Source: Candidatus Flemingiibacterium sp.
GTDB taxonomy: Bacteria > Bacillota > Clostridia > Oscillospirales > CAG-272
Direction of reading: 5' to 3'
NCBI GenBank assembly: GCA_045635785.1
Contig: JAZTWJ010000107.1
Coordinates: 3,497 to 67,496, forward strand
Length of the DNA: 64,000 nt
Both the position numbers and the translations under genes were made by a program. The number at the start of each line of letters is the position of its first letter. Within the stretch, counting starts at the first letter, position 1. Shown here piece after piece: positions 5,629-53,100 of the stretch. Below the pieces are notes generated by a model. That model did not search any database. It was not told the DNA's origin and saw only the letters and a list, made by a program, of their open reading frames with translations.

Positions 5629-5667
5629 TGATAATCATCACTTTCGCATTTGCGAAAGCTTCCTTTC
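5629..5667 (-). promoter_or_regulatory. SD / anti-SD / SD leader hairpin in front of trmK
   Basis: Sense strand: GAAAGGaaGCTTTCGCaaatGCGAAAGtgatgattatcaTTG. Confidence 0.45.
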
Positions 5668-5681
5668 AGGCTTATACCGCA

Positions 5682-5707
5682 AGCAGGCGCTGTGAACAGC
5701 GCCTGCT
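5682..5707. terminator. GC-rich hairpin just 3' of the DUF1858 gene (the T-run is on the plus-strand side only)
   Basis: AGCAGGCGCTG-tgaa-CAGCGCCTGCT forms an 11-bp stem. Plus strand continues atgCTTTTT; the minus strand has no U-tract, so it may be only a partial terminator or stabiliser. Confidence 0.45.
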
Positions 5708-5915: not shown

Positions 5916-6011
5916 TTAATGACCATTGCTTTCACCGCAGTGAAAGCTTCCTTTCTCCCCCTCAGGGGCTTAATTTTTGTTGCAAAAGCTTGAACCTAAC
6001 AAAGTTCAAAC
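5916..6011 (-). promoter_or_regulatory. structured 5' UTR element (copy A of the conserved three-hairpin leader)
   Basis: Sense: GTTTGAACtttgttagGTTCAAGCTTTTGCAacaaaaattAAGCCCCtgagGGGGAGAAAGGaaGCTTTCACtgcgGTGAAAGCaatggtcattaaATG. Confidence 0.5.
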
Positions 6012-8856: not shown

Positions 8857-10054
8857 AATGATTATGCCCGTGCATTAAAAGAAATGCAGTCCTTTTAAAA
8901 TTGAAGAAAGTGTCGGGGCGATACCAAAGTGCCGCATGCGCCTTGCCTGCGCTTGCCAATTTCTTGGCGCGCGCGATATTTTCTTTATCACGGCAAAATC
9001 CGTAAACCACGCGCTTTGGAATGCTATGCCAAAAAATTTCCTCATCGCAGAAATAGGTCTCGCCGAGGTCTTTTTCCTCCACATGATCCTCTACGATATT
9101 TTGCGCCACATTGCAGCCTGCCGATGTGACGTAATGATTGGAGCGCCCAAGTCGCAGATTGATTTCGAATGTGCGGAAGCTTCCGTCACGGCTGTCGAAT
9201 TTGATGTCGAAATTCGAATAACCCACAAAGCCGATCTCTTCAAGATATGCCTTGAATTTTTCCATCAGCGGCTTATCCTTTTCCGTAATGATGGCGCAGT
9301 GATTGCCAAGTCCCTTTGGCGTATGCTCCTCTAAAAGCACATGCCCGAGGCACATCATCTTGACTTTTCCGTGTCTGTCCGAATAAGCGGTCAGCACGCG
9401 CATATTGGAGTCGTCGCCCGGGATCATATCCTGCAAAATGATCTTCTCCGGATAGCCCGAAGCGTATATACGGCGAATGATGATCTCCGCTTCTCCCTTG
9501 GTTGCGGCTGTGTAAACCTTTTTCATACCGTCAAAGGGATATTTCCAATAGATGGCGCTGGCGGAGGGCTTGATGATGACCGGATAGGAAAAACCAAGTG
9601 CGCTTTCATCCAGCACGTTTTGAAGATTTGTATCGGGCGTGATCACCGCCGTTTTGGGATACGGAATACCAAAGCGGTCACAATCCTCATAGAAGTTCGC
9701 TTTATATGCAAGTCTTTCAAACAGATCCGCGCCGATATAAGGCACGATATAGCGCGGACGCAGTTTTTCGCCATGGTGGATCAGCATTGCCGCATAGTCG
9801 TCGGTGCATCCGAATGCGATAAGTGTGGCATCCTGATGCGCCTTTGCAAAATCCAGCAGCGTTTGTACCATAACCTCCGGCTCATCCAGTTTTTCTACGG
9901 CGGTGAAGCGCAGGATACGGGTATAGCAGGATGCGCCGATGGCGTATCTGCCGAATGCCTGCGATTTTACACCGTACTTTTCATGAAAGGCGCGGGCAAC
10001 GCTGTAACAGTTGAGGTCCGCGCCGAGCAGCACGGGAATGATCGTATCTTTCAT
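8822..10054 (-). CDS. ATP-grasp carboxylate-amine ligase (D-aspartate ligase-like by context)
   Basis: 410 aa with ATP-grasp fold features (VIIKPSAS..., EINLRLGRSN). Its 3' end overlaps the racemase start. Confidence 0.65.
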   Translation of the reverse strand: MKDTIIPVLLGADLNCYSVARAFHEKYGVKSQAFGRYAIGASCYTRILRFTAVEKLDEPEVMVQTLLDFAKAHQDATLIAFGCTDDYAAMLIHHGEKLRPRYIVPYIGADLFERLAYKANFYEDCDRFGIPYPKTAVITPDTNLQNVLDESALGFSYPVIIKPSASAIYWKYPFDGMKKVYTAATKGEAEIIIRRIYASGYPEKIILQDMIPGDDSNMRVLTAYSDRHGKVKMMCLGHVLLEEHTPKGLGNHCAIITEKDKPLMEKFKAYLEEIGFVGYSNFDIKFDSRDGSFRTFEINLRLGRSNHYVTSAGCNVAQNIVEDHVEEKDLGETYFCDEEIFWHSIPKRVVYGFCRDKENIARAKKLASAGKAHAALWYRPDTFFNFKRTAFLLMHGHNHYGKFKKYYGKE

Positions 10055-12933: not shown

Positions 12934-13021
12934 AAAAGCAAGTGATATTAAACCGCTTCATAAAAGCGGCGGGGCAAGCATATCATAAAATGAATACATA
13001 ACAGCGTTTGCGGCTTTACTT

Positions 13022-13108
13022 TGGTCAAAAACCACGATTTTGCCGTGCAAATCAAGCCCAAAGGGGCAGAAAGGTAGCTTTCGCCCGAGCGAAAGCCATG
13101 GTTATTCT
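13022..13108 (+). promoter_or_regulatory. structured 5' leader (copy D of the conserved leader)
   Basis: TGGTcaaaaACCAcgaTTTTGCcgtgcaaatcAAGCCCaaaGGGGcAGAAAGGtaGCTTTCGCccgaGCGAAAGCcatggttattctATG. Confidence 0.45.
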
Positions 13109-38710: not shown

Positions 38711-38743
38711 AAAAGCCGCCAAGGCAAAACCTTGGCGGCTTTT
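38711..38743. terminator. bidirectional intrinsic terminator
   Basis: AAAAGCCGCCAAGG-caaaa-CCTTGGCGGCTTTT forms a 14-bp stem. Confidence 0.82.
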
Positions 38744-38766
38744 GTTATGCAATTTTGGAACGACTT

Positions 38767-39882
38767 TTAGAATGCCATGCGTCCCCATCCGCGATTTTTG
38801 CCGGAAATGGGTTCGAGATTCAAAAGCTCGCGCGCGGTATTTACATAATAGCGGTAATTTTCCAGCGGAGTGCCGTTGGGGATTCTGTGGTCCAAACCAA
38901 AGGCAACGCCACCCTCCTGCATCAGAGGCTGCATCTTATACTCCAGCTCCTTGCGGATATCTTCCTTGGAAGAACGAAGGATATGCTTGTCAATGCCGCC
39001 CTTGAACTTGATGGCATTGCCGTACTTTTTACGCAGCGCGACAATATCCATTCCCGCAGCAGGCTCGCAAGGATAGAAGATGTTGACGCCTGCTTCCATA
39101 AACGGTTCGATGACCGATTCCACGTTGCCGTCGCTGTCCTGCGAGAACAGGCGCGTTCCTCTTTCCTGCAAAAGATCCCAAATTCTTCTGTAATAAGGCG
39201 AGATAAACTCTCTGACCTGCTTCGGGCCGACCAGCGGACCCGATTTGCCCGCCAAGTCTTCATGAACAGCCAGGTTGTCGATGGTAAGCTCGCGGGTGAT
39301 CGCTTCATAAACCTTGAAGGTGGTATCGGACACGGTGTTGATGATGTCCATCATCAGCTCCGGATCCTCGTAATAGCAGATACACGCACCCTCATCGCCC
39401 ATCAGCTCACGCGGAAGGTCATATCCGCCGGGCATGCCGGCAATGATCAGTACGCCCTCCGACTGCAGCTTCTTTGCGCGCTCAAGTCTCTCGCGGTCGA
39501 TGCGGTCGGGAGTAAAGGTGAACATGTGCTTGATCTTCAGCCAGCTGTCCATATCCTTGACCGGATAATCGAGGGGCAGCGGAATGCTGGCGGTCGACTT
39601 GATCAGCTTCATGGTTCTGCCGTAGCCGTCTTTTGTGATACGGTATTCGTCAGTTTCCTCCAAAACCTCGGATTTGAAGGTGTTGCGCGCGCCTGTGCCG
39701 CCGATCCAAAAATTCGGAATGTAGTCAAATTCAAACGCCTCAAGCGAAATTTCCTCGGGGGTTGCGCCCTGCTCTGCCCATTCCTTTTCAAGTCCCACAA
39801 GCGGACCGAAAAGCTCACAGAACATCTGCCGTTCGGGCTTTCCCGTCATCAACTCAATGTATTGCGTTCTTGTCCATTTCAT
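38767..39882 (-). CDS. URO-D/MtaA-like (uroporphyrinogen decarboxylase family) putative corrinoid methyltransferase, paralogue 1
   Basis: 371 aa. AGGAG 9 nt upstream of ATG 39882. SQDSDG at the position where other paralogues have HxCG. GLDHRIPNG near the C-terminus. Confidence 0.78.
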   Translation of the reverse strand: MKWTRTQYIELMTGKPERQMFCELFGPLVGLEKEWAEQGATPEEISLEAFEFDYIPNFWIGGTGARNTFKSEVLEETDEYRITKDGYGRTMKLIKSTASIPLPLDYPVKDMDSWLKIKHMFTFTPDRIDRERLERAKKLQSEGVLIIAGMPGGYDLPRELMGDEGACICYYEDPELMMDIINTVSDTTFKVYEAITRELTIDNLAVHEDLAGKSGPLVGPKQVREFISPYYRRIWDLLQERGTRLFSQDSDGNVESVIEPFMEAGVNIFYPCEPAAGMDIVALRKKYGNAIKFKGGIDKHILRSSKEDIRKELEYKMQPLMQEGGVAFGLDHRIPNGTPLENYRYYVNTARELLNLEPISGKNRGWGRMAF

Positions 39883-45033: not shown

Positions 45034-46574
45034 TCATAGCATCAAAGCACCGGAGAGGAGAAACTACCATTTCTGCTTCTATTTTAATTACAGTTAACGG
45101 AGAAAAGCGCACGGTCGAGGCAGGCACGCGGCTTTCGGAGCTATTTTTGACAGAGCTTCCCTGCGGCGCGCACGGCAAATGCGGCAAGTGCAAGGTTCGG
45201 GCAAGCGGCGAACTCTCGCCGCTGACAAGCGCCGAGCAAAAATTGTTGGACGCGAAGGAGATCTCTGACGGCATCCGCCTCGCCTGCTGCACGGACATTC
45301 TCGGCGAATGCACGGTGGAAACAGCGTTCGAAAAAAGCAAGGACGACGCGGTTTTGACGGCAGGCAGAGCCAAGAATATCACGCTGAACGCATCCTTCAA
45401 GCAGATCGGTGCCGCCATAGACATCGGCACGACCACCCTTGCCATCAGACTGCTTTCCCCCTTAGGGGAGATCCTCGCGGAGGGCGGTATGGCAAATCCC
45501 CAAGCATCCTTCGGCGCAGATGTTATTTCCCGCATGGAATCCCATCTGGCGGGCAATGGTGCGGAACTGGCTGATACCATTCGAAGTGCCATCGACCGCA
45601 TGCTTGCGGATCTTTGCAAGGGCATCGGACGGGATCCTTCGGAAATTGACGGGTTGGTCATCACAGGCAATACGGTCATGCTTTATCTGCTCACAAATAC
45701 CACACCCGAGCCACTCTCCCATGCGCCCTTCACGCTCACCCGCGATTTTGGCGAAGCCATGTCTGCCAAGACGCTCGGCTTATCATCTGCCGCGCCTGAC
45801 GCAGAGGTCTATCTTGCCCCCTGCATCTCCGCATTTGTAGGCGGCGATACGATCTGCGCGATCCTTTGCGGCGAGCTTGTCGGCAAGGAAAATGCAATGC
45901 TGGTTGACATCGGCACAAACGGCGAAATGGCGCTTTACTGCAAAAATTCGCTGTACACCTGCTCCACCGCCGCAGGCCCTGCCTTTGAAGGCGTTGGCAT
46001 TTCCATGGGTATGCGCGGCGCACCGGGTGCCATCGACAAGGTTTACTTGACCGAAAACGGCATCTCCGCCCATGTTATCGGCGAAACAAAGCCCGTCGGC
46101 ATCTGCGGAAGCGGCATTGTGGATGCCATGGCAGCACTGCTCGAAAACGGAACGGTGGATGAAACCGGCTTCATTGAGGAAGACGAAGTGATGATTCTGC
46201 CGCCGGTCGCACTCACGGGGCAGGATATTCGCATGATACAGCTTGCAAAGTCTGCCATTTACTCGGGTCTAAAAACGCTGATGCATGCGGCAAATATCGA
46301 CGAGAGTGAGGTCACAACGCTCATGATCGCAGGCGGATTCGGAAGCTATCTGAACACCGTCAGCGCGGGCAGGATCGGCTTGCTTCCGAAATCTTTGGTC
46401 AGCAAGGTTGCCGTTATCGGCAATGCGGCGCTGGGCGGCGCAGAGCTTCTGCTTTTGAACACCGCCATGCGAAAGGATGCCTATGCGCTGGCAAAATCGG
46501 CGCAATCCATTGATTTGGCGAGCGATCCCTATTTCGCAGATACCTACATCGAAGCGATGATGTTTGAAGAATAA
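45030..46574 (+). CDS. corrinoid reductive activase (RACE/RamA-like: [2Fe-2S] ferredoxin domain + ASKHA ATPase)
   Basis: CGAHGKCGKC...LACC ferredoxin-type Cys pattern, then DIGTTT and DIGTNGE ASKHA phosphate motifs. Start uncertain (TTG 45030 or ATT 45069). Confidence 0.85.
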   Translation: MIIASKHRRGETTISASILITVNGEKRTVEAGTRLSELFLTELPCGAHGKCGKCKVRASGELSPLTSAEQKLLDAKEISDGIRLACCTDILGECTVETAFEKSKDDAVLTAGRAKNITLNASFKQIGAAIDIGTTTLAIRLLSPLGEILAEGGMANPQASFGADVISRMESHLAGNGAELADTIRSAIDRMLADLCKGIGRDPSEIDGLVITGNTVMLYLLTNTTPEPLSHAPFTLTRDFGEAMSAKTLGLSSAAPDAEVYLAPCISAFVGGDTICAILCGELVGKENAMLVDIGTNGEMALYCKNSLYTCSTAAGPAFEGVGISMGMRGAPGAIDKVYLTENGISAHVIGETKPVGICGSGIVDAMAALLENGTVDETGFIEEDEVMILPPVALTGQDIRMIQLAKSAIYSGLKTLMHAANIDESEVTTLMIAGGFGSYLNTVSAGRIGLLPKSLVSKVAVIGNAALGGAELLLLNTAMRKDAYALAKSAQSIDLASDPYFADTYIEAMMFEE

Positions 46575-46597
46575 ACTTAAGAATTGTATTCTTTTTT

Positions 46598-46636
46598 TAA
46601 GAAAGCTTTCGCCGATGCGAAAGTCATGGTGATTTT
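46598..46636 (+). promoter_or_regulatory. anti-SD / SD leader hairpin in front of paralogue 5
   Basis: AAGAAAGCTTTCGC-cgat-GCGAAAGtcatggtgattttATG. Confidence 0.45.
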
Positions 46637-47695
46637 ATGATTTCACTTCAAAAAGAGACTCTCGCTCTGCTGGAGGACATTGAAAACCGTATCGACCCCG
46701 AAACCGAGGAAGATTTTCGCAATCAATGGAGGGGCTTCTTATACGGCGAATTCAAAGGCGATCTATTCCACCCCGAACGCAAGAAATTGTCCCCACCCAA
46801 ATACGAGCCTCCCTTTGTTCCCATCAACGATGCCCTTAGCAGTGTTGAGCTGATGCTCAGAGCACAGCTTTCCTCGGTTTCGGTCGCGCTCAATACCCCC
46901 CATCGGAATCTTTGCATGCGCGCGAATTACGGAACGGGTATTATGACATCGCTGTTTGGCGCAGAGATTTTCGTGATGCCCTATGCCACCAATACGCTTC
47001 CGACCACCCGTCCCATCAACGACACTGAATGGATCCGCCGCATGGTGGATAAGGGCGAGCCGAATCTGATGGGTGGCTTTGGTAGCGATGTGTTTGCATT
47101 TGGCGAGCTTTGTGCGGAAGTATTCGAAAAATATCCGCGCATTCGCTCCTATGTATCGGTCTATCACCCCGATTTACAGGGTGCGCTCGATATTTGCGAA
47201 ATGCTGTGGGGAGCCGAAATGTTCTATGCCATGTATGACGAGCCGGAGCTTGTCCATAGTGCCCTGCAGCTTTCCGCCGACACGTTCACATCCTTTATGC
47301 ACAAATGGCATCGAATCTTCCCTCGCAACGATGAGATGAATGTCCATTGGGAGTTTCTCTGCCACCGCGGCTCCATTTTGATACGCGACGACAGCGCGAT
47401 GAATCTCACGCCCGAATTTTACAAGGAATACGCGGCTCCCTATGATGCGCTCCTTTTAGAACGCTTTGGCGGCGGCGCGGTGCATTTCTGCGGACGCGGA
47501 GATCATTATATCGAAACCATGTCCGAAATCCCCTATCTTTACGGCATCAATCTCTCGCAACCCTCATACAACGATATGGAAAAGATCTATCGCAATACCG
47601 TTGACAAGGGTATTCCGATCTTTAATTTGAGTGCGCGTCAAGCAAAAGCGGACATCGGCCGCGAGGGCGGTTTCCATCATCTTGTCAGCATCTGA
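46637..47695 (+). CDS. URO-D/MtaA-like family protein, paralogue 5 (HFCG class, divergent)
   Basis: 352 aa. AVHFCGRGDH. Last gene of the plus-strand operon. Confidence 0.72.
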   Translation: MISLQKETLALLEDIENRIDPETEEDFRNQWRGFLYGEFKGDLFHPERKKLSPPKYEPPFVPINDALSSVELMLRAQLSSVSVALNTPHRNLCMRANYGTGIMTSLFGAEIFVMPYATNTLPTTRPINDTEWIRRMVDKGEPNLMGGFGSDVFAFGELCAEVFEKYPRIRSYVSVYHPDLQGALDICEMLWGAEMFYAMYDEPELVHSALQLSADTFTSFMHKWHRIFPRNDEMNVHWEFLCHRGSILIRDDSAMNLTPEFYKEYAAPYDALLLERFGGGAVHFCGRGDHYIETMSEIPYLYGINLSQPSYNDMEKIYRNTVDKGIPIFNLSARQAKADIGREGGFHHLVSI

Positions 47696-50249: not shown

Positions 50250-52484
50250 TTATCGTGTTTCCCTAAGCTGTTTTAACAATGTGATAGCTGCATCCGCATC
50301 CGATTGTGCAAGTCGGCGAAACTTCGCTGCGGTTTCGGCAATTGATGCACGGAGGCCCTCTTGATCGGTCATAATATCGTCTATCTTCTGACGCAGATTA
50401 CCTTCCTTGATGGTGCGAATATCCAGCGTTTTTGCTTCCTGCCCGATATAGGAAAGAAATGCATCAATTTTCGGGTCATAGGAAATGCCTGTCATCGGCA
50501 CACCCATGGCTGCGGCATAAATCAGCGTATGCAGTCTTGTTCCCACCACAAACTCTGCGTCTGCAATCAGACCGCAAAGTTCGGATGCGGAAAGTCCGCT
50601 CACCACAATACCCACGCCGCATTTTTCGCGCAATGTCAACGAGACCGCCATGTCACGGCTTGCATGCATGGGCACGATTATAGGCAACAGCCCATAGTTG
50701 CTTGCCACCAAAGCAAGATCGGCAGCGATCACGTCCACCGTCTTCATGCTTGATTTTTCGCCGAAATTATTGCCATCCTTGACACTGACAATGAAGTATT
50801 TACCGTTAATTTTTTCCCGTGTGCGGATGTGTTCGCACCAGCTCGCGTCGGATGCTCGGATGAGAAAAGCAGGGTCTGCGGTAACATGAAGCGCCGTCCT
50901 ACAACCAATCTCTCGCGCGGTTTTCTCTGAAGATGGCTCACGGAAGCTGACATAATCCGCACTTTCCATGACAGCCACCGCTTTTTCGCGGCCGCTTTTA
51001 GAAACAAGCGGCCCGAGTCCGTTGGCATACAGCATGGTTTTCAATCCGCGTTTTTTTGCCATGCGCAGAATGGTGAGATAATAAAACAGGCTTTTTTTAC
51101 TGGTGCCATCCTGCAGAAGACTGCCGCCGCCCGAAATGAGCAGCTTCGCATGCCGCATTTCAGTGGCGATGGCAAACAGATTGAATCGATGGATAGCACG
51201 GACGCCGACGGCTCGAGTCAGCCTGCGAGGATTCTTTGCCAACACCGTAATGCGCGTATCGGGCTGACGCTCTCTTATGCCGCTCACAATGGCATCAAGC
51301 AGCGAATCATCGCCGATATTGTGAAAGCCATAGTAGCCGGAAATAATGACATCTCCGCGCTTATAATGACGCCGCGGTTTCAGCCTTTCATAAACGGCGA
51401 TATGATCATCCGCCATTTTCGCAACGGAATAGCTTTCCATTACCACTTGTCTGCCAAGTCTGCCGCAGGCTGCGCGAGCATCCTCCGACATATGGAATAT
51501 TTCAAGCAGATCGCGCTCCACGTCCGCCGTTTCGGCAAGACGGGAACCTCTAAAACAGAAGTTGGTGGCACGGGCAAAAGGAAGAATTTCCTCTCTTACC
51601 ACGCCACTATAGCCAAGAGGGCCCACCAGAACCGTGGGGCGTTCGCTGCTCATTGCTTCCAACGCCGCTCGAGAAACGCCCACAAAGGCATCACAGGTCG
51701 CCACAAGCTCCGCAATATCGGTGCGCGGGCCCGTCAGACGTATAACCTCTCGTCCGATGGCGGCATTTGCCTCCGACGCCTTTGCTGAAAGCGCCGCAAA
51801 GGCATTGCCACCGCCAACGATGAGAATTTCCAGATTGGGAATTTCCGCCGCAAGCTTCACCGCCGCTTCGCAAAGAAGCAATGCGGGACGAACGGTGGAA
51901 TCATCGATGCGGCTGACGGACAGCACGCGAAATTTGCCATCCTCCAGCGCAAGCTCTGCCTTCAAAGCTGCATTGTCGATGGATTTATGGAAACGCACCG
52001 TGTCAATGCCATTGATGGTCACTGTGATGGTGTCGTTCGGCACACCATACTTGTCTATTAGATACTGTTTGATATCGCAGCTTACCGCAAACGTATGCTC
52101 GCCCCAATCGGACAGCCTCGCCCACAGCGCGTTTACGGAGAATACAAAATGGGTAGAAGTTACAAAACGAAAGCCCAATTTTTTTGCCAGAATGCCACAT
52201 ACAAAAGCAGGAATGCGCGAATGCGCATGCACAATGTCAAAATTCTCCGCTTTGATGAACGCACCCAGTTTATTAAGACTTTCCATCACCGCAACGGGCT
52301 TTTTGGTATGCAGCGGCACCTTGAAGTGCTTGACGCCCGACTGCTCCAGCGCATTCACATAAACGCCGCCGTTGGATGCAACGGTAACATCATGCCCTCT
52401 CGCCGCCAGCTCTCTTGCCAATTCCACTACATGCGTCTCCGCGCCGCCGATGACCATCCACATATGGCAGATTAGTATTTTCAT
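50250..52484 (-). CDS. fusion protein: GT4 glycosyltransferase + polysaccharide pyruvyl transferase (CsaB-like)
   Basis: 744 aa. N-terminal GT4 part (GGAETHVVELAREL) and C-terminal CsaB-type part (ISGYYGFHNIGDDSLL...LISGGGSLLQD). Confidence 0.82.
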   Translation of the reverse strand: MKILICHMWMVIGGAETHVVELARELAARGHDVTVASNGGVYVNALEQSGVKHFKVPLHTKKPVAVMESLNKLGAFIKAENFDIVHAHSRIPAFVCGILAKKLGFRFVTSTHFVFSVNALWARLSDWGEHTFAVSCDIKQYLIDKYGVPNDTITVTINGIDTVRFHKSIDNAALKAELALEDGKFRVLSVSRIDDSTVRPALLLCEAAVKLAAEIPNLEILIVGGGNAFAALSAKASEANAAIGREVIRLTGPRTDIAELVATCDAFVGVSRAALEAMSSERPTVLVGPLGYSGVVREEILPFARATNFCFRGSRLAETADVERDLLEIFHMSEDARAACGRLGRQVVMESYSVAKMADDHIAVYERLKPRRHYKRGDVIISGYYGFHNIGDDSLLDAIVSGIRERQPDTRITVLAKNPRRLTRAVGVRAIHRFNLFAIATEMRHAKLLISGGGSLLQDGTSKKSLFYYLTILRMAKKRGLKTMLYANGLGPLVSKSGREKAVAVMESADYVSFREPSSEKTAREIGCRTALHVTADPAFLIRASDASWCEHIRTREKINGKYFIVSVKDGNNFGEKSSMKTVDVIAADLALVASNYGLLPIIVPMHASRDMAVSLTLREKCGVGIVVSGLSASELCGLIADAEFVVGTRLHTLIYAAAMGVPMTGISYDPKIDAFLSYIGQEAKTLDIRTIKEGNLRQKIDDIMTDQEGLRASIAETAAKFRRLAQSDADAAITLLKQLRETR

Positions 52485-52582
52485 GGAATACCATGACCTT
52501 CGCCGCAGCGAAAGCCGCCTTTCTCCCCTATTGGGGCTTGGTTTTCATGCAAAAGCATCCGTTTGAAACCGGATCTTCAAAC
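52485..52582 (-). promoter_or_regulatory. structured 5' UTR element (copy B of the conserved three-hairpin leader)
   Basis: Sense: GTTTGAAgatccggTTTCAAACggatGCTTTTGCAtgaaaaccAAGCCCCaataGGGGAGAAAGGcgGCTTTCGCtgcgGCGAAGGtcatggtattccATG. Confidence 0.5.
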
Positions 52583-52643
52583 TTTTTCTATCAGGTCTGA
52601 TTGCAAAATCAGACAGCGATGCCTGTTCGATATTCTACTTTAT

Positions 52644-52672
52644 AGTATACCACATTGTCCCCTATTCGTCAA
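52644..52672 (-). promoter_or_regulatory. sigma-A type promoter for the GT4-CsaB gene
   Basis: TTGACG-17 nt-(TGg)TATACT on the minus strand. Confidence 0.72.
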
Positions 52673-52881: not shown

Positions 52882-52968
52882 TGGTGCCGGTGGCGGGGGT
52901 CGAACCCGCACGATGTTGCCATCAATGGATTTTGAGTCCACCTCGTCTGCCAATTCCAACACACCGGC
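52882..52968 (-). tRNA. tRNA-Leu (anticodon CAA), CCA encoded
   Basis: 87 nt. Acceptor GCCGGTG/CACCGGC, anticodon loop CTCAAAA, long variable arm, T-arm GCGGGTTCGACCCCCGC. Confidence 0.93.

Positions 52969-53024: not shown

Positions 53025-53100
<76 letters not shown>

Follow-up and report, generated by a model that had tools for sequence, protein, structure and literature searches.

The 64,000-nt stretch of Candidatus Flemingiibacterium sp. DNA analysed here (contig JAZTWJ010000107.1; hereafter the window) encodes on its minus strand a GT4 glycosyltransferase fused to a CsaB pyruvyl transferase (50250..52484), as assigned from Pfam matches (GT4 and PS_pyruv_trans) and homologues. The start codon of this gene, the ATG at 52484, is the native start common to the orthologues, and it is directly preceded by a structured leader element (copy B, 52485-52614, minus strand). 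A preliminary description had aligned this leader with those of two unrelated genes, one encoding a DUF1858 protein and the other an Amidase_3 (CwlD-like) protein, and had proposed that the three share a ligand-sensing domain coupled to a hairpin that sequesters the Shine–Dalgarno (SD) sequence. The leaders lie where they had been placed, and they align over approximately 100 nt, the last 55 nt or so being nearly identical; they are transcribed, structured 5' leaders common to unrelated genes. Our analyses led us to conclude that the shared leader is not a metabolite sensor but a copy of a dispersed, non-coding, hairpin-rich repeat in a clade of Oscillospirales. We favor, with a probability of about 0.62, the explanation that the element is a leader cassette resembling the REP2 repeat of Neisseria, which would have landed between the native SD and the start codon and would supply a ribosome-binding site (RBS) split by a hairpin.

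The segments of the GT4-CsaB leader are described here from the promoter to the start codon, all on the minus strand. In long members of the family, a hairpin designated H0 is followed by a three-way junction composed of a long-range helix and two hairpins, P1 and P2. A promoter scan located the native promoter, TTGACG-17-TGgTATACT, at 52644..52672 (10/12 matches to the consensus, with a TG extension), in agreement with the preliminary description; it lies outside the element and is kept in four orthologues without the element. Alignment with the orthologues assigned positions 52615..52643 (…GTAGAATATCGAACAGGCATCGCT) to the leftover of the native short 5' untranslated region (UTR). This remnant is about as long as the entire 27-nt leader of one orthologue (L073), and it probably holds a decayed native SD, judging from the enrichment of SD-like sequences to the left of long copies. 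The left end of the element is a first H0-type hairpin, GTCTGATTTTGCAATCAGAC (52595..52614; family consensus GTYTGA…TCARAC), which is the extra hairpin that had been reported for copy B at 52614-52595. It is followed by a second H0-type hairpin, GTTTGAAGATCCGGTTTCAAAC (52561..52582). Such tandem H0 units, two in copy B, are also present in one of the related loci examined below (L050), where three are arrayed inside one copy (L050:4530-4560). The degenerate middle part (52525..52558) consists of a weak P2-like hairpin (CUUUUGCAUGAAAAC) and CAAGCCCC-AAUA-GGGG, and lacks both P1 and the 5' strand of the long-range helix. The SD of the element, AGAAAGG (52518..52524), is predicted to be unpaired. 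Between this SD and the start codons lies an 8-bp hairpin, GCUUUCGC-UGCG-GCGAAGGU, with one G-U pair (52496..52515), and the tail AUGGUAUUCC (52485..52494) contains a conserved upstream AUG (ATG1, 52494-52492), which is out of frame with the gene.

An unfiltered search of the whole window with a covariance model of the 3' module (R1) found five copies. The three copies described earlier are thus all real, but the count was too low, two further copies (C and E) consisting of the 3' module alone. The R1 matches are at 5973-5918 (copy A, minus), 52541-52486 (copy B, minus), 5685-5630 (copy C, minus), 13051-13106 (copy D, plus), and 46583-46634 (copy E, plus). In addition, the core pattern AGAAAGGNNGCTTTCNCNNNNGNGAA (AGAAAGG-NN-GCTTTCNC-N4-GNGAA) matched the window four times, against 0.04 matches expected from shuffles. 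Copy A (5916..6011, minus) precedes the DUF1858 gene (ATG 5915) and contains H0 (6011-5988), a P2-like hairpin, a CCCC/GGGG pairing, and a 3' module with the SD at 5956-5950, the hairpin at 5947-5928, and ATG1 at 5926-5924. The open reading frame (ORF) starting at its ATG1 encodes MVIK*, and the stop codon overlaps the gene start (ATGA). The promoter of copy A, TTGACA-17-TATAAT (6074-6046), was also found at the position given previously and matches the consensus at 12/12 positions. Copy C (5629..5668, minus) lies past the DUF1858 stop codon and a GC-rich hairpin, immediately 5' of trmK (TTG 5628); its SD is TGAAAGG (5668-5662), its hairpin is at 5659-5640, and its ATG1 is at 5638-5636. The GC-rich hairpin between the DUF1858 stop codon and copy C has 11 bp (GCAGGCGCUG-UUCA-CAGCGCCUGC, 5682-5707); it was flagged as terminator-like on the plus (antisense) strand alone and has no U-tract on the gene strand.

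Copy D (13007..13108, plus) precedes the Amidase_3 gene (ATG 13109) and has the family architecture minus H0. Comparison with the family assigned its long-range helix, UUUG(C)GGCUU (13007-13016) with AAGCCCAAA (13054-13062), as well as P1 (13022-13034) and P2 (13038-13052); its SD, hairpin, and ATG1 are at 13068-13074, 13077-13096, and 13098-13100, respectively. A GerA gene comes after the Amidase_3 gene, and therefore the organism is a spore-former. Copy E (46599..46636, plus) lies in an operon gap, between a stop codon at 46572-46574 and the ATG at 46637 of a 352-aa URO-D-like ORF. Its AAGAAAG is fused to the hairpin (46605-46624), and its ATG1 (46626-46628) opens an ORF for MVIL*, again with an ATGA overlap with the gene start. 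The ATG1 ORFs of copies B, C, and D stop without such an overlap. Pfam matches also confirmed the identities of the genes behind copies A, C, and D as DUF1858, TrmK, and Amidase_3, respectively. The window copies are worn members of the family: copy D retains the junction and has no H0, and copies A and B retain H0 but no longer have P1, a local CCCC/GGGG hairpin having taken the place of the lost 5' strand of the long-range helix. A second covariance model, built for the 5' part (R2), detected none of copies A, B, and D in the window.

The family was then delineated by scanning one genome per bacterial species with the pattern GAAAGGNNGCTTTCNCNNNNGNGAARGNNATG; most of the genomes in the analysis are metagenome-assembled genomes (MAGs). 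The scan gave 68 exact core matches, all of them in assemblies of Oscillospirales-type Clostridia; from about 21 fixed bases and about 1.2×10^12 positions, we estimate that fewer than one match would be expected by chance. The genome of the window is not among these 68 loci. One MAG named 'Acutalibacter sp.' carried 15 matches, and two other assemblies carried 9 and 7; the titles of the carrier records include Acutalibacter, Flemingibacterium, Massiliimalia massiliensis, Ruminococcus, Oscillospiraceae, and 'Eubacteriales'. When 0.5 Mb of the fetched loci (numbered with L) were searched with R1, 82 copies were found, 13 of which fell outside the strict pattern (hereafter, the unforced copies). 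The covariance model and the search of related genomes that had been suggested thus yielded further homologues, and their helices covary. The earlier statement that the leader matches no known riboswitch or RNA family also held when the scan was run: Rfam 15 identified two tRNAs and nothing else in the window, a permissive Rfam 15 scan of copy B gave nothing meaningful, and in Rfam 15 scans of 18 loci and a consensus copy only tRNAs and a tmRNA exceeded the gathering threshold. The best sub-threshold E-values in the window and the 18 loci were 0.07-0.4, to unrelated families. The tmRNA gene scored 146 bits and is located, together with a tRNA, in the vicinity of an element copy (L066:3782-4133, minus), an arrangement that looks incidental. 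Literature searches for an earlier description in Clostridia or Ruminococcaceae found none.

The position of the element is uniform. For each of the approximately 85 copies, all of them sense-oriented, a long ORF begins 11-16 nt past the hairpin (mode, 13 nt), and the right end of the element is 0-3 nt from the native start codon, in the orientation of the gene. R2 gave 38 matches, each of them immediately 5' of a gene start; the 3' module follows in 37 cases, L015 being the single exception. The element sites are either 5' UTRs of genes or gaps between operon genes. The preliminary description had allowed that the leaders might be copies of a mobile repeat found mostly away from 5' UTRs. The element is a dispersed repeat, but it is always at 5' UTRs and not away from them. 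The 78 downstream proteins match 116 Pfam families, with at most three proteins per family, those being orthologues (pheT ×3, purA ×2, and topA ×2). This breadth without a theme speaks strongly against a metabolite-specific regulon, and the action on the cell wall of two of the three genes first described is a coincidence. No transposase was found among the 78 downstream proteins, a search that covered the adjacent genes and not whole genomes.

Comparison of the copies defined the anatomy of the element, which ranges from about 40 to 190 nt (107-194 nt for long copies). The constant 3' module comprises, in order, (CAAYUCC-N2-4), AGAAAGG, NN (usually A, then A or G), GCUUUCGC-N4-GCGAAAGC, N, AUG-G-U-N-A-U-A-A-N(1-3), and the AUG of the gene; the sequence between the 3' hairpin and the gene's own AUG is AUGGUNAUA. 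On the 5' side, long copies add the near-perfect hairpin H0 (GTYTGAAARATAAATYTTTCARAC), GUUUUGYG, and the three-way junction, which is formed by the long-range helix (UUGYGRCU/AGYCRCAA), P1, and P2 (UUUUGC-N3-GCAAAA). These assignments change how the preliminary alignment is read. The 'hairpin 1' that had been regarded as paired in every copy combines non-homologous helices, namely the family H0 in copies A and B and TGGT/ACCA, which is P1 of the junction, in copy D. The conserved 'GCTTTTGC block' exists as a sequence and is really the 5' arm of the hairpin UUUUGC-N3-GCAAAA, and the AAGCCCC of the conserved hairpin corresponds, across the family as a whole, to the 3' strand of the long-range helix.

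The structure of the 5' part is supported by covariation. In 15 full-length copies, 94.2% of the cells pair and 16 of the 31 pairs show compensatory changes; none of 500 shuffles reached these values, and slid partners pair at 31-51%. The 3' hairpin likewise shows compensatory stems in the less constrained copies (GCUUUUGC/GCAAAAGC, GACUUUGC/GCGAAGUC, AACUUUGC/GCAAAGUU, and CAC/GUG). Its G-U pairs are confined to the sense strand (copy B, L003, L024, L027, L045, and L049), which points to pairing at the RNA level. Some copies depart from the common plan. One contains three repeats of CCGCGAAGCGGGAAUUUUG, a P1-like hairpin plus AUUUUG (L011:3290-3360). In JAFLRP01 ('Acutalibacter sp.' HAN004; for example L010, L037, L044, L054, and L062), the junction of many copies is replaced or extended by other conserved hairpins (GGAGUUUGACC-N3-GGUCAACCUCC, AAAGUUUCCC-N3-GGGAAACUUU, and AAAGUUCGUC-N4-GACGAACUU), some of which pair an SD-like GGAGG with CCUCC. 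A leader peptide across the 5' part was rejected; H0 is 18-24 nt long, with length differences between copies that are not multiples of three, and the candidate frames run into stop codons. A CcpA cre-like operator was also rejected; the spacing in GAAAG-N4-CTTTC is wrong for cre.

AGAAAGG is complementary to the 3' tail of Firmicute 16S rRNA (…CACCUCCUUUCU-3'; …CCUUUCU-3'), and none of the copies has another SD-like sequence close to the real start codon. Partition-function folding of 67 copies gave mean probabilities of being unpaired of 0.64 for the SD, 0.39 for the upstream part of the leader, and 0.03 for the stem of the hairpin. The only SD pairing predicted is a weak 3-bp UCC:GGA, and the mean dG of the 3' hairpin is -10.9 kcal/mol. 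The hairpin that had been described as sequestering the SD is thus an 8-bp hairpin located 3' of an SD that is predicted to be mostly unpaired; in these models, it leaves the SD unmasked and takes up the spacer. Along the linear sequence, ATG1 is 23 nt and the gene AUG about 35 nt away from the SD; these distances become 3 nt and 13-15 nt, respectively, with the hairpin looped out. There are precedents in phage T4, where a hairpin cuts the SD-AUG spacing of genes 38 and 25 from 22 to 5 nt and from 27 to 11 nt, respectively, and where weakening that hairpin reduces translation (PMC3014915).

These features can be combined into the following mechanism. The element would have entered the stretch that separated the original SD of the gene from the AUG, and it would be transcribed from the host gene's own promoter. 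With the old SD separated from the AUG, the element would therefore have to supply a working RBS. Its long unpaired SD (AGAAAGG, often extended to AGAAAGGAGG) may bind the ribosome and so drive translation of the gene, and the stable 8-bp hairpin would shorten the spacer by looping out about 20 nt and drawing the SD near the AUGs; a short A/U-rich tail (AUGGUNAUAA) would then end at the gene AUG. H0 and the three-way junction would be structural parts that may serve propagation or mRNA stability, and not a ligand sensor.

One member of the family hints at the origin of the hairpin. It has a complete covarying 5' part and no hairpin, and its contiguous SD (GAAGGCAGGUGA-ACAAA-AUG) is 5 nt before the AUG (L015:2901-3017, plus); it stands back to back with a normal copy on the opposite strand. 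Its AGGUGAACAAAAUG lines up with the post-hairpin AUGGUCAUAAAAAUG of other copies, suggesting that the hairpin interrupts a formerly ordinary extended SD. It is conceivable, as a possibility only, that the SD is split and that the post-hairpin GGUNAU continues the complementarity to the 16S rRNA tail. The GG is kept in 10 of the 13 unforced copies, 6-8 nt before the gene AUG, and the L015 copy also fits this idea; against it, the position needing G is G in only 6 of 69 copies. A short variant was seen before clpC in L069, a relative otherwise poor in the element (9755-9803, minus): GAGAAAGGAC-GCUUUC-GCAAA-GAAAGC-AACACUGUCA-AUG, in which the upstream AUG is missing. In L071 and L072, plain SDs occupy the corresponding position before clpC, an indication that a unit made of the hairpin alone can lie behind a possible native SD.

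The conservation of the 3' module might instead reflect a trans-acting factor, an RNA-binding protein or a small RNA, that recognizes the module and thereby controls the translation or stability of every mRNA bearing it, as a global post-transcriptional regulon. Such a factor would explain why the sequences of the stem and tail are kept (GCUUUCGC/GCGAAAGC and AUGGUNAUA) with a free loop, and why the module is retained at orthologous genes as the upstream sequence drifts (pheT in L019/L038/L047); the genes behind REP2/CREN in Neisseria are co-induced in a comparable way (PMC3184786). However, the search pattern accounts for most of the stem conservation, and in less constrained copies the stem varies through compensatory changes. 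Moreover, housekeeping genes of all kinds are served and no candidate factor was identified, and we regard this explanation as unlikely.

The conserved ATG1 raises another alternative, in which the element is a copied 5' UTR together with the first four codons (Met-Val-Ile-Lys) of an ancestral gene, ATG1 is the true start, and out-of-frame copies act through re-initiation after an upstream ORF (uORF). The spacing agrees with this, the 3 nt between the SD and ATG1 in the folded state being near the 22-to-5 nt of T4 gene 38. The default distance from ATG1 to the gene ATG is 12 nt, and ATG1 is in frame in 51 of 81 copies, which would yield N-terminally extended proteins. ATG1 is followed by G-U-N-A-U-A, the most variable base being the third position of the Val codon, and several uORFs end on an ATGA overlap (copies A and E, L012, and L031). 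Among the 13 unforced copies, ATG1 is swapped for GTG twice and for TTG once, as would be expected of a start codon; four others have ATA or AGG, which would not. The remaining evidence also points away from ATG1. All five window copies, and 37% of copies overall, have ATG1 out of frame. The stop codons of the resulting ORFs are scattered between 5 nt upstream of the gene start and 755 nt downstream of it, with ten ORFs running more than 30 nt into the gene. All in-frame copies retain ATG or TTG at the gene's own start, which is unexpected for a mere internal Met, and the N-termini of orthologues match the second AUG. An 'MVIxM' N-terminal signature is absent from the orthologues, since they do not carry the element. 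We consider it improbable that ATG1 is the true start. Under the favored explanation, the cassette would recruit the ribosome, which must then be able to initiate at the gene AUG, whether directly or following a brief round of translation.

Comparison with orthologues gave information on how the element may have arrived. Plain leaders free of the element were found at orthologous genes in L008, L024, L069, and L071-L073: the DUF1858 orthologue in L008 has GGAGG-9 nt-ATG, the trmK orthologue in L008 has a plain SD, and the GT4-CsaB orthologue in L024 has a plain leader. When the copy B locus was compared with four GT4-CsaB orthologues (59-62% protein identity), the promoter (TTGAC-17-TGTGGTAYAMTATAA) and the coding start (ATGAARAT…CATATGTGGATGG) aligned. 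The leaders of the four orthologues are about 27-60 nt long with an ordinary SD, and that of the window is about 130 nt longer. The relatives bearing these orthologues have almost no module copies in 63 kb. The closest GT4-CsaB homologue in the databases is 62% identical, and the filled-versus-empty comparison is therefore at the genus level. One of these orthologues starts with GTG (L069:9980-10000, …GAAAGGGAGGUCUUGCC-GUG-AAAAUACUA…).

The left flanks of long copies are consistent with insertion behind native SDs. An SD-like 4-mer occurs within 16 nt to the left of H0 in 27 of 37 long copies, compared with 10 of 37 in a control window and a fraction of 0.16 in random windows, and the purine content there is 0.78 as compared with 0.55. 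These motifs vary in sequence and distance. The similarity between near-identical paralogous copies ends on the left just inside the SD-like motifs, at A(A)GTYTGA, and on the right at the gene ATG, so that the motifs are flanking DNA; they look like orphaned native SDs. The mean distance from the left motif to the element is 4.9 nt, in comparison with a native GGAGG-to-ATG spacing of 7.45 nt at the same loci, as would be expected if insertion took place 2-3 nt before the ATG; the 1-3 variable bases at the right end agree with this. No terminal inverted repeats (TIRs) were found, the longest end-to-end complementary run averaging 4.6 nt versus 4.5 nt in shuffles, nor were target-site duplications (TSDs) found in the element copies; the element is therefore not a miniature inverted-repeat transposable element. 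The left junction shows a purine- and A-rich flank with no fixed target word.

Once in place, the copies are inherited and maintained: at orthologous genes of related species they align through their flanks, the module being kept as the upstream sequence drifts (L019/L038/L047, L027/L045, and L048/L055). At unconstrained positions, identity is higher among the copies of one genome (0.594) than among those of different genomes (0.441), and subfamilies defined by the loop are present inside one MAG. This homogenization within lineages may result from either continued copying or gene conversion.

Several points weigh against the cassette explanation. The search pattern imposed the core on 69 of the 82 copies, and the conservation of the SD, the stem, and ATG1 is thus partly by construction. 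Two mutually exclusive folds of the 5' part both fit all the sequences. The folded distance of 13-15 nt from the SD to the gene AUG exceeds both the native mean of 7.45 nt and the 11 nt of T4 gene 25, and the better-placed and highly conserved ATG1 is the one so often out of frame, as described above. With no TIRs, TSDs, conserved target, or adjacent transposase, the case for insertion draws on orthologues of 59-62% protein identity instead of an empty site in another strain. Sharp boundaries and within-genome similarity could also arise from gene conversion among leaders that were already present.

A further alternative places the function at the DNA level, the palindromes being ends of a single-strand transposable element of the IS200/IS605 or REP/RAYT type, protein operators, or antisense terminators, with the effect on translation merely tolerated. 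IS200/IS605-derived and REP/RAYT elements have subterminal hairpins, a strict orientation, and no TIRs or TSDs. The present element resembles them in its near-perfect subterminal palindromes at both ends (H0 and the 3' hairpin), its fixed orientation, and its lack of TIRs and TSDs, and the loop-defined subfamilies in one genome would also be accounted for. In antisense orientation, the 3' hairpin precedes a T-rich run complementary to the SD (TTCCTTTCT) and was flagged as intrinsic-terminator-like (window 5928-5947 and 5641-5658, plus; L014:2014-2033, minus). The element differs from these transposon relatives in having no conserved left tetranucleotide, no transposase among the adjacent genes, and G-U pairs of the RNA type on the sense strand only; in addition, the conservation of the 3' module at orthologous genes implies selection on the side of the host gene. 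We consider a purely DNA-level role to be quite improbable. On the sense strand, H0 plus GUUUUG was likewise flagged as terminator-like (L014:1912-1935).

A riboswitch-like RNA, in which an aptamer of several hairpins would detect a small molecule or second messenger and thereby govern a hairpin that sequesters the SD, would suit a structured, covarying 5' UTR element without an Rfam family and with two alternative pairings of its 5' part, but it is hardly tenable given the 116 Pfam families served with no coherent pathway, the many copies per genome (up to 15 exact core matches in one MAG), the gene-by-gene presence and absence among orthologues, the lack of a conserved aptamer core (copies C and E and many copies at other loci are the 3' module alone, A and B lack the junction, and the 5' structure is largely lost in the window), and an SD that is unpaired in the predicted ensembles upstream of a hairpin that is always formed.

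The cassette explanation is best compared with known repeats that lie directly upstream of ORFs. REP2/CREN of Neisseria (PMC3184786) and IR-A/IR-B of Borrelia (PMC9031163) are repeats of 120-150 bp with internal stem-loops and no TIRs. Each brings a promoter and an RBS together with an ATG that is fused to the host ORF, and their presence before a given gene varies by strain or lineage (PMC3184786, PMC9031163). The present element is similar in architecture, although homology in sequence is improbable across phyla: it is multi-copy, lacks TIRs, has internal stem-loops, is sense-oriented 5' of ORFs, brings an RBS and an ATG, and is variably present. In contrast to REP2 and IR-A, it has no promoter of its own (the consensus copy contains no sigma-70-like site), and would be read from the host promoter. 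It also differs from REP2 in its higher density, with 5 copies per 64 kb versus 26 per Neisseria genome, and from REP2 and IR-A/B in coming from a different phylum and in its hairpin between the SD and the start, its covarying three-way junction, and the apparently orphaned native SD on its left. The likeness to T4 genes 38 and 25 lies in an SD and a start that are far apart linearly with a stable hairpin between them; those are single loci with mutational proof, whereas the element is a repeated cassette at dozens of genes, with two candidate AUGs, known from sequence.

BOX, Correia, ERIC, bcr1, Rickettsia RPE, and MIRU are short modular hairpin repeats with lineage variants and some in-frame fusions to ORF ends (PMC3184786). 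The element shares with them its short, modular, hairpin-forming nature, its many copies, and its co-transcription with genes. Most of them, in contrast, have TIRs or else lie at gene 3' ends or varied intergenic sites, and in the literature compared, none has been reported to be invariably 11-16 nt before start codons in place of the SD. The SD-like part has a separate parallel. STAB-SD sequences such as that of B. thuringiensis cryIIIA (GAAAGGAGG) are 5' mRNA stabilizers with an SD-like GAAAGG(AGG) far upstream of the start. The long SD-like sequence of the element, well upstream of the start, could similarly bind the 3' end of 16S rRNA; unlike STAB-SD mRNAs, which have a separate functional SD by the AUG, the element copies have no other SD. 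The element is new in combining a hairpin-split SD, a covarying junction, and an apparently orphaned flanking native SD, the class of upstream repeats itself having already been described.

If the cassette explanation is true, a noticeable fraction of housekeeping genes in some gut Oscillospirales (among them pheT, purA, topA, dnaE, cysS, and hisD) have moved off their ancestral SD and onto a repeat-borne cassette. The family would then be a natural, many-fold replicated test of how Gram-positive ribosomes handle a structured SD-AUG spacer, which has been documented mainly for two T4 genes. Next to Neisseria REP2, it would be a second and far larger case of a repeat joining a translation start of its own to host genes, and it would raise anew the question of what brings such repeats so exactly to start codons. 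A more far-reaching proposal is that the element is selfish DNA that homes to the gap between the SD and the start codon and survives by providing a replacement hairpin-split RBS, with the result that several per cent of genes (5 of about 60 in the window) depend on one cassette and are controllable as a unit; we put this forward tentatively, as possible but rather doubtful. The cultured carrier Massiliimalia massiliensis (L052) makes experiments possible. For annotation, an in-frame ATG1 misleads the calling of start codons, and uncatalogued leaders of this kind will recur as candidate riboswitches.

Some minor observations were made in the window and in the predicted proteins. The one match of R2 in the window (38713-38801, plus; 16 bits, E = 0.42) consists of a GC-rich hairpin (GCCGCCAAGG…CCUUGGCGGC) followed by UUUUGUU and is probably an ordinary terminator unrelated to the element. 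The database protein for the GT4-CsaB orthologue of L069 (P0009) had its start assigned to a downstream Met (MWMVIGG…), as had P0005, P0011, and others, a miscalled start that is unrelated to the element. Just upstream of the copy B promoter, the minus strand encodes tRNA-Leu(CAA) (52882-52968) and tRNA-Thr(GGT) (53025-53100), and a promoter-like sequence, TTGACA-17-AATACT with a TG extension (52832-52804), lies between these tRNAs and copy B.

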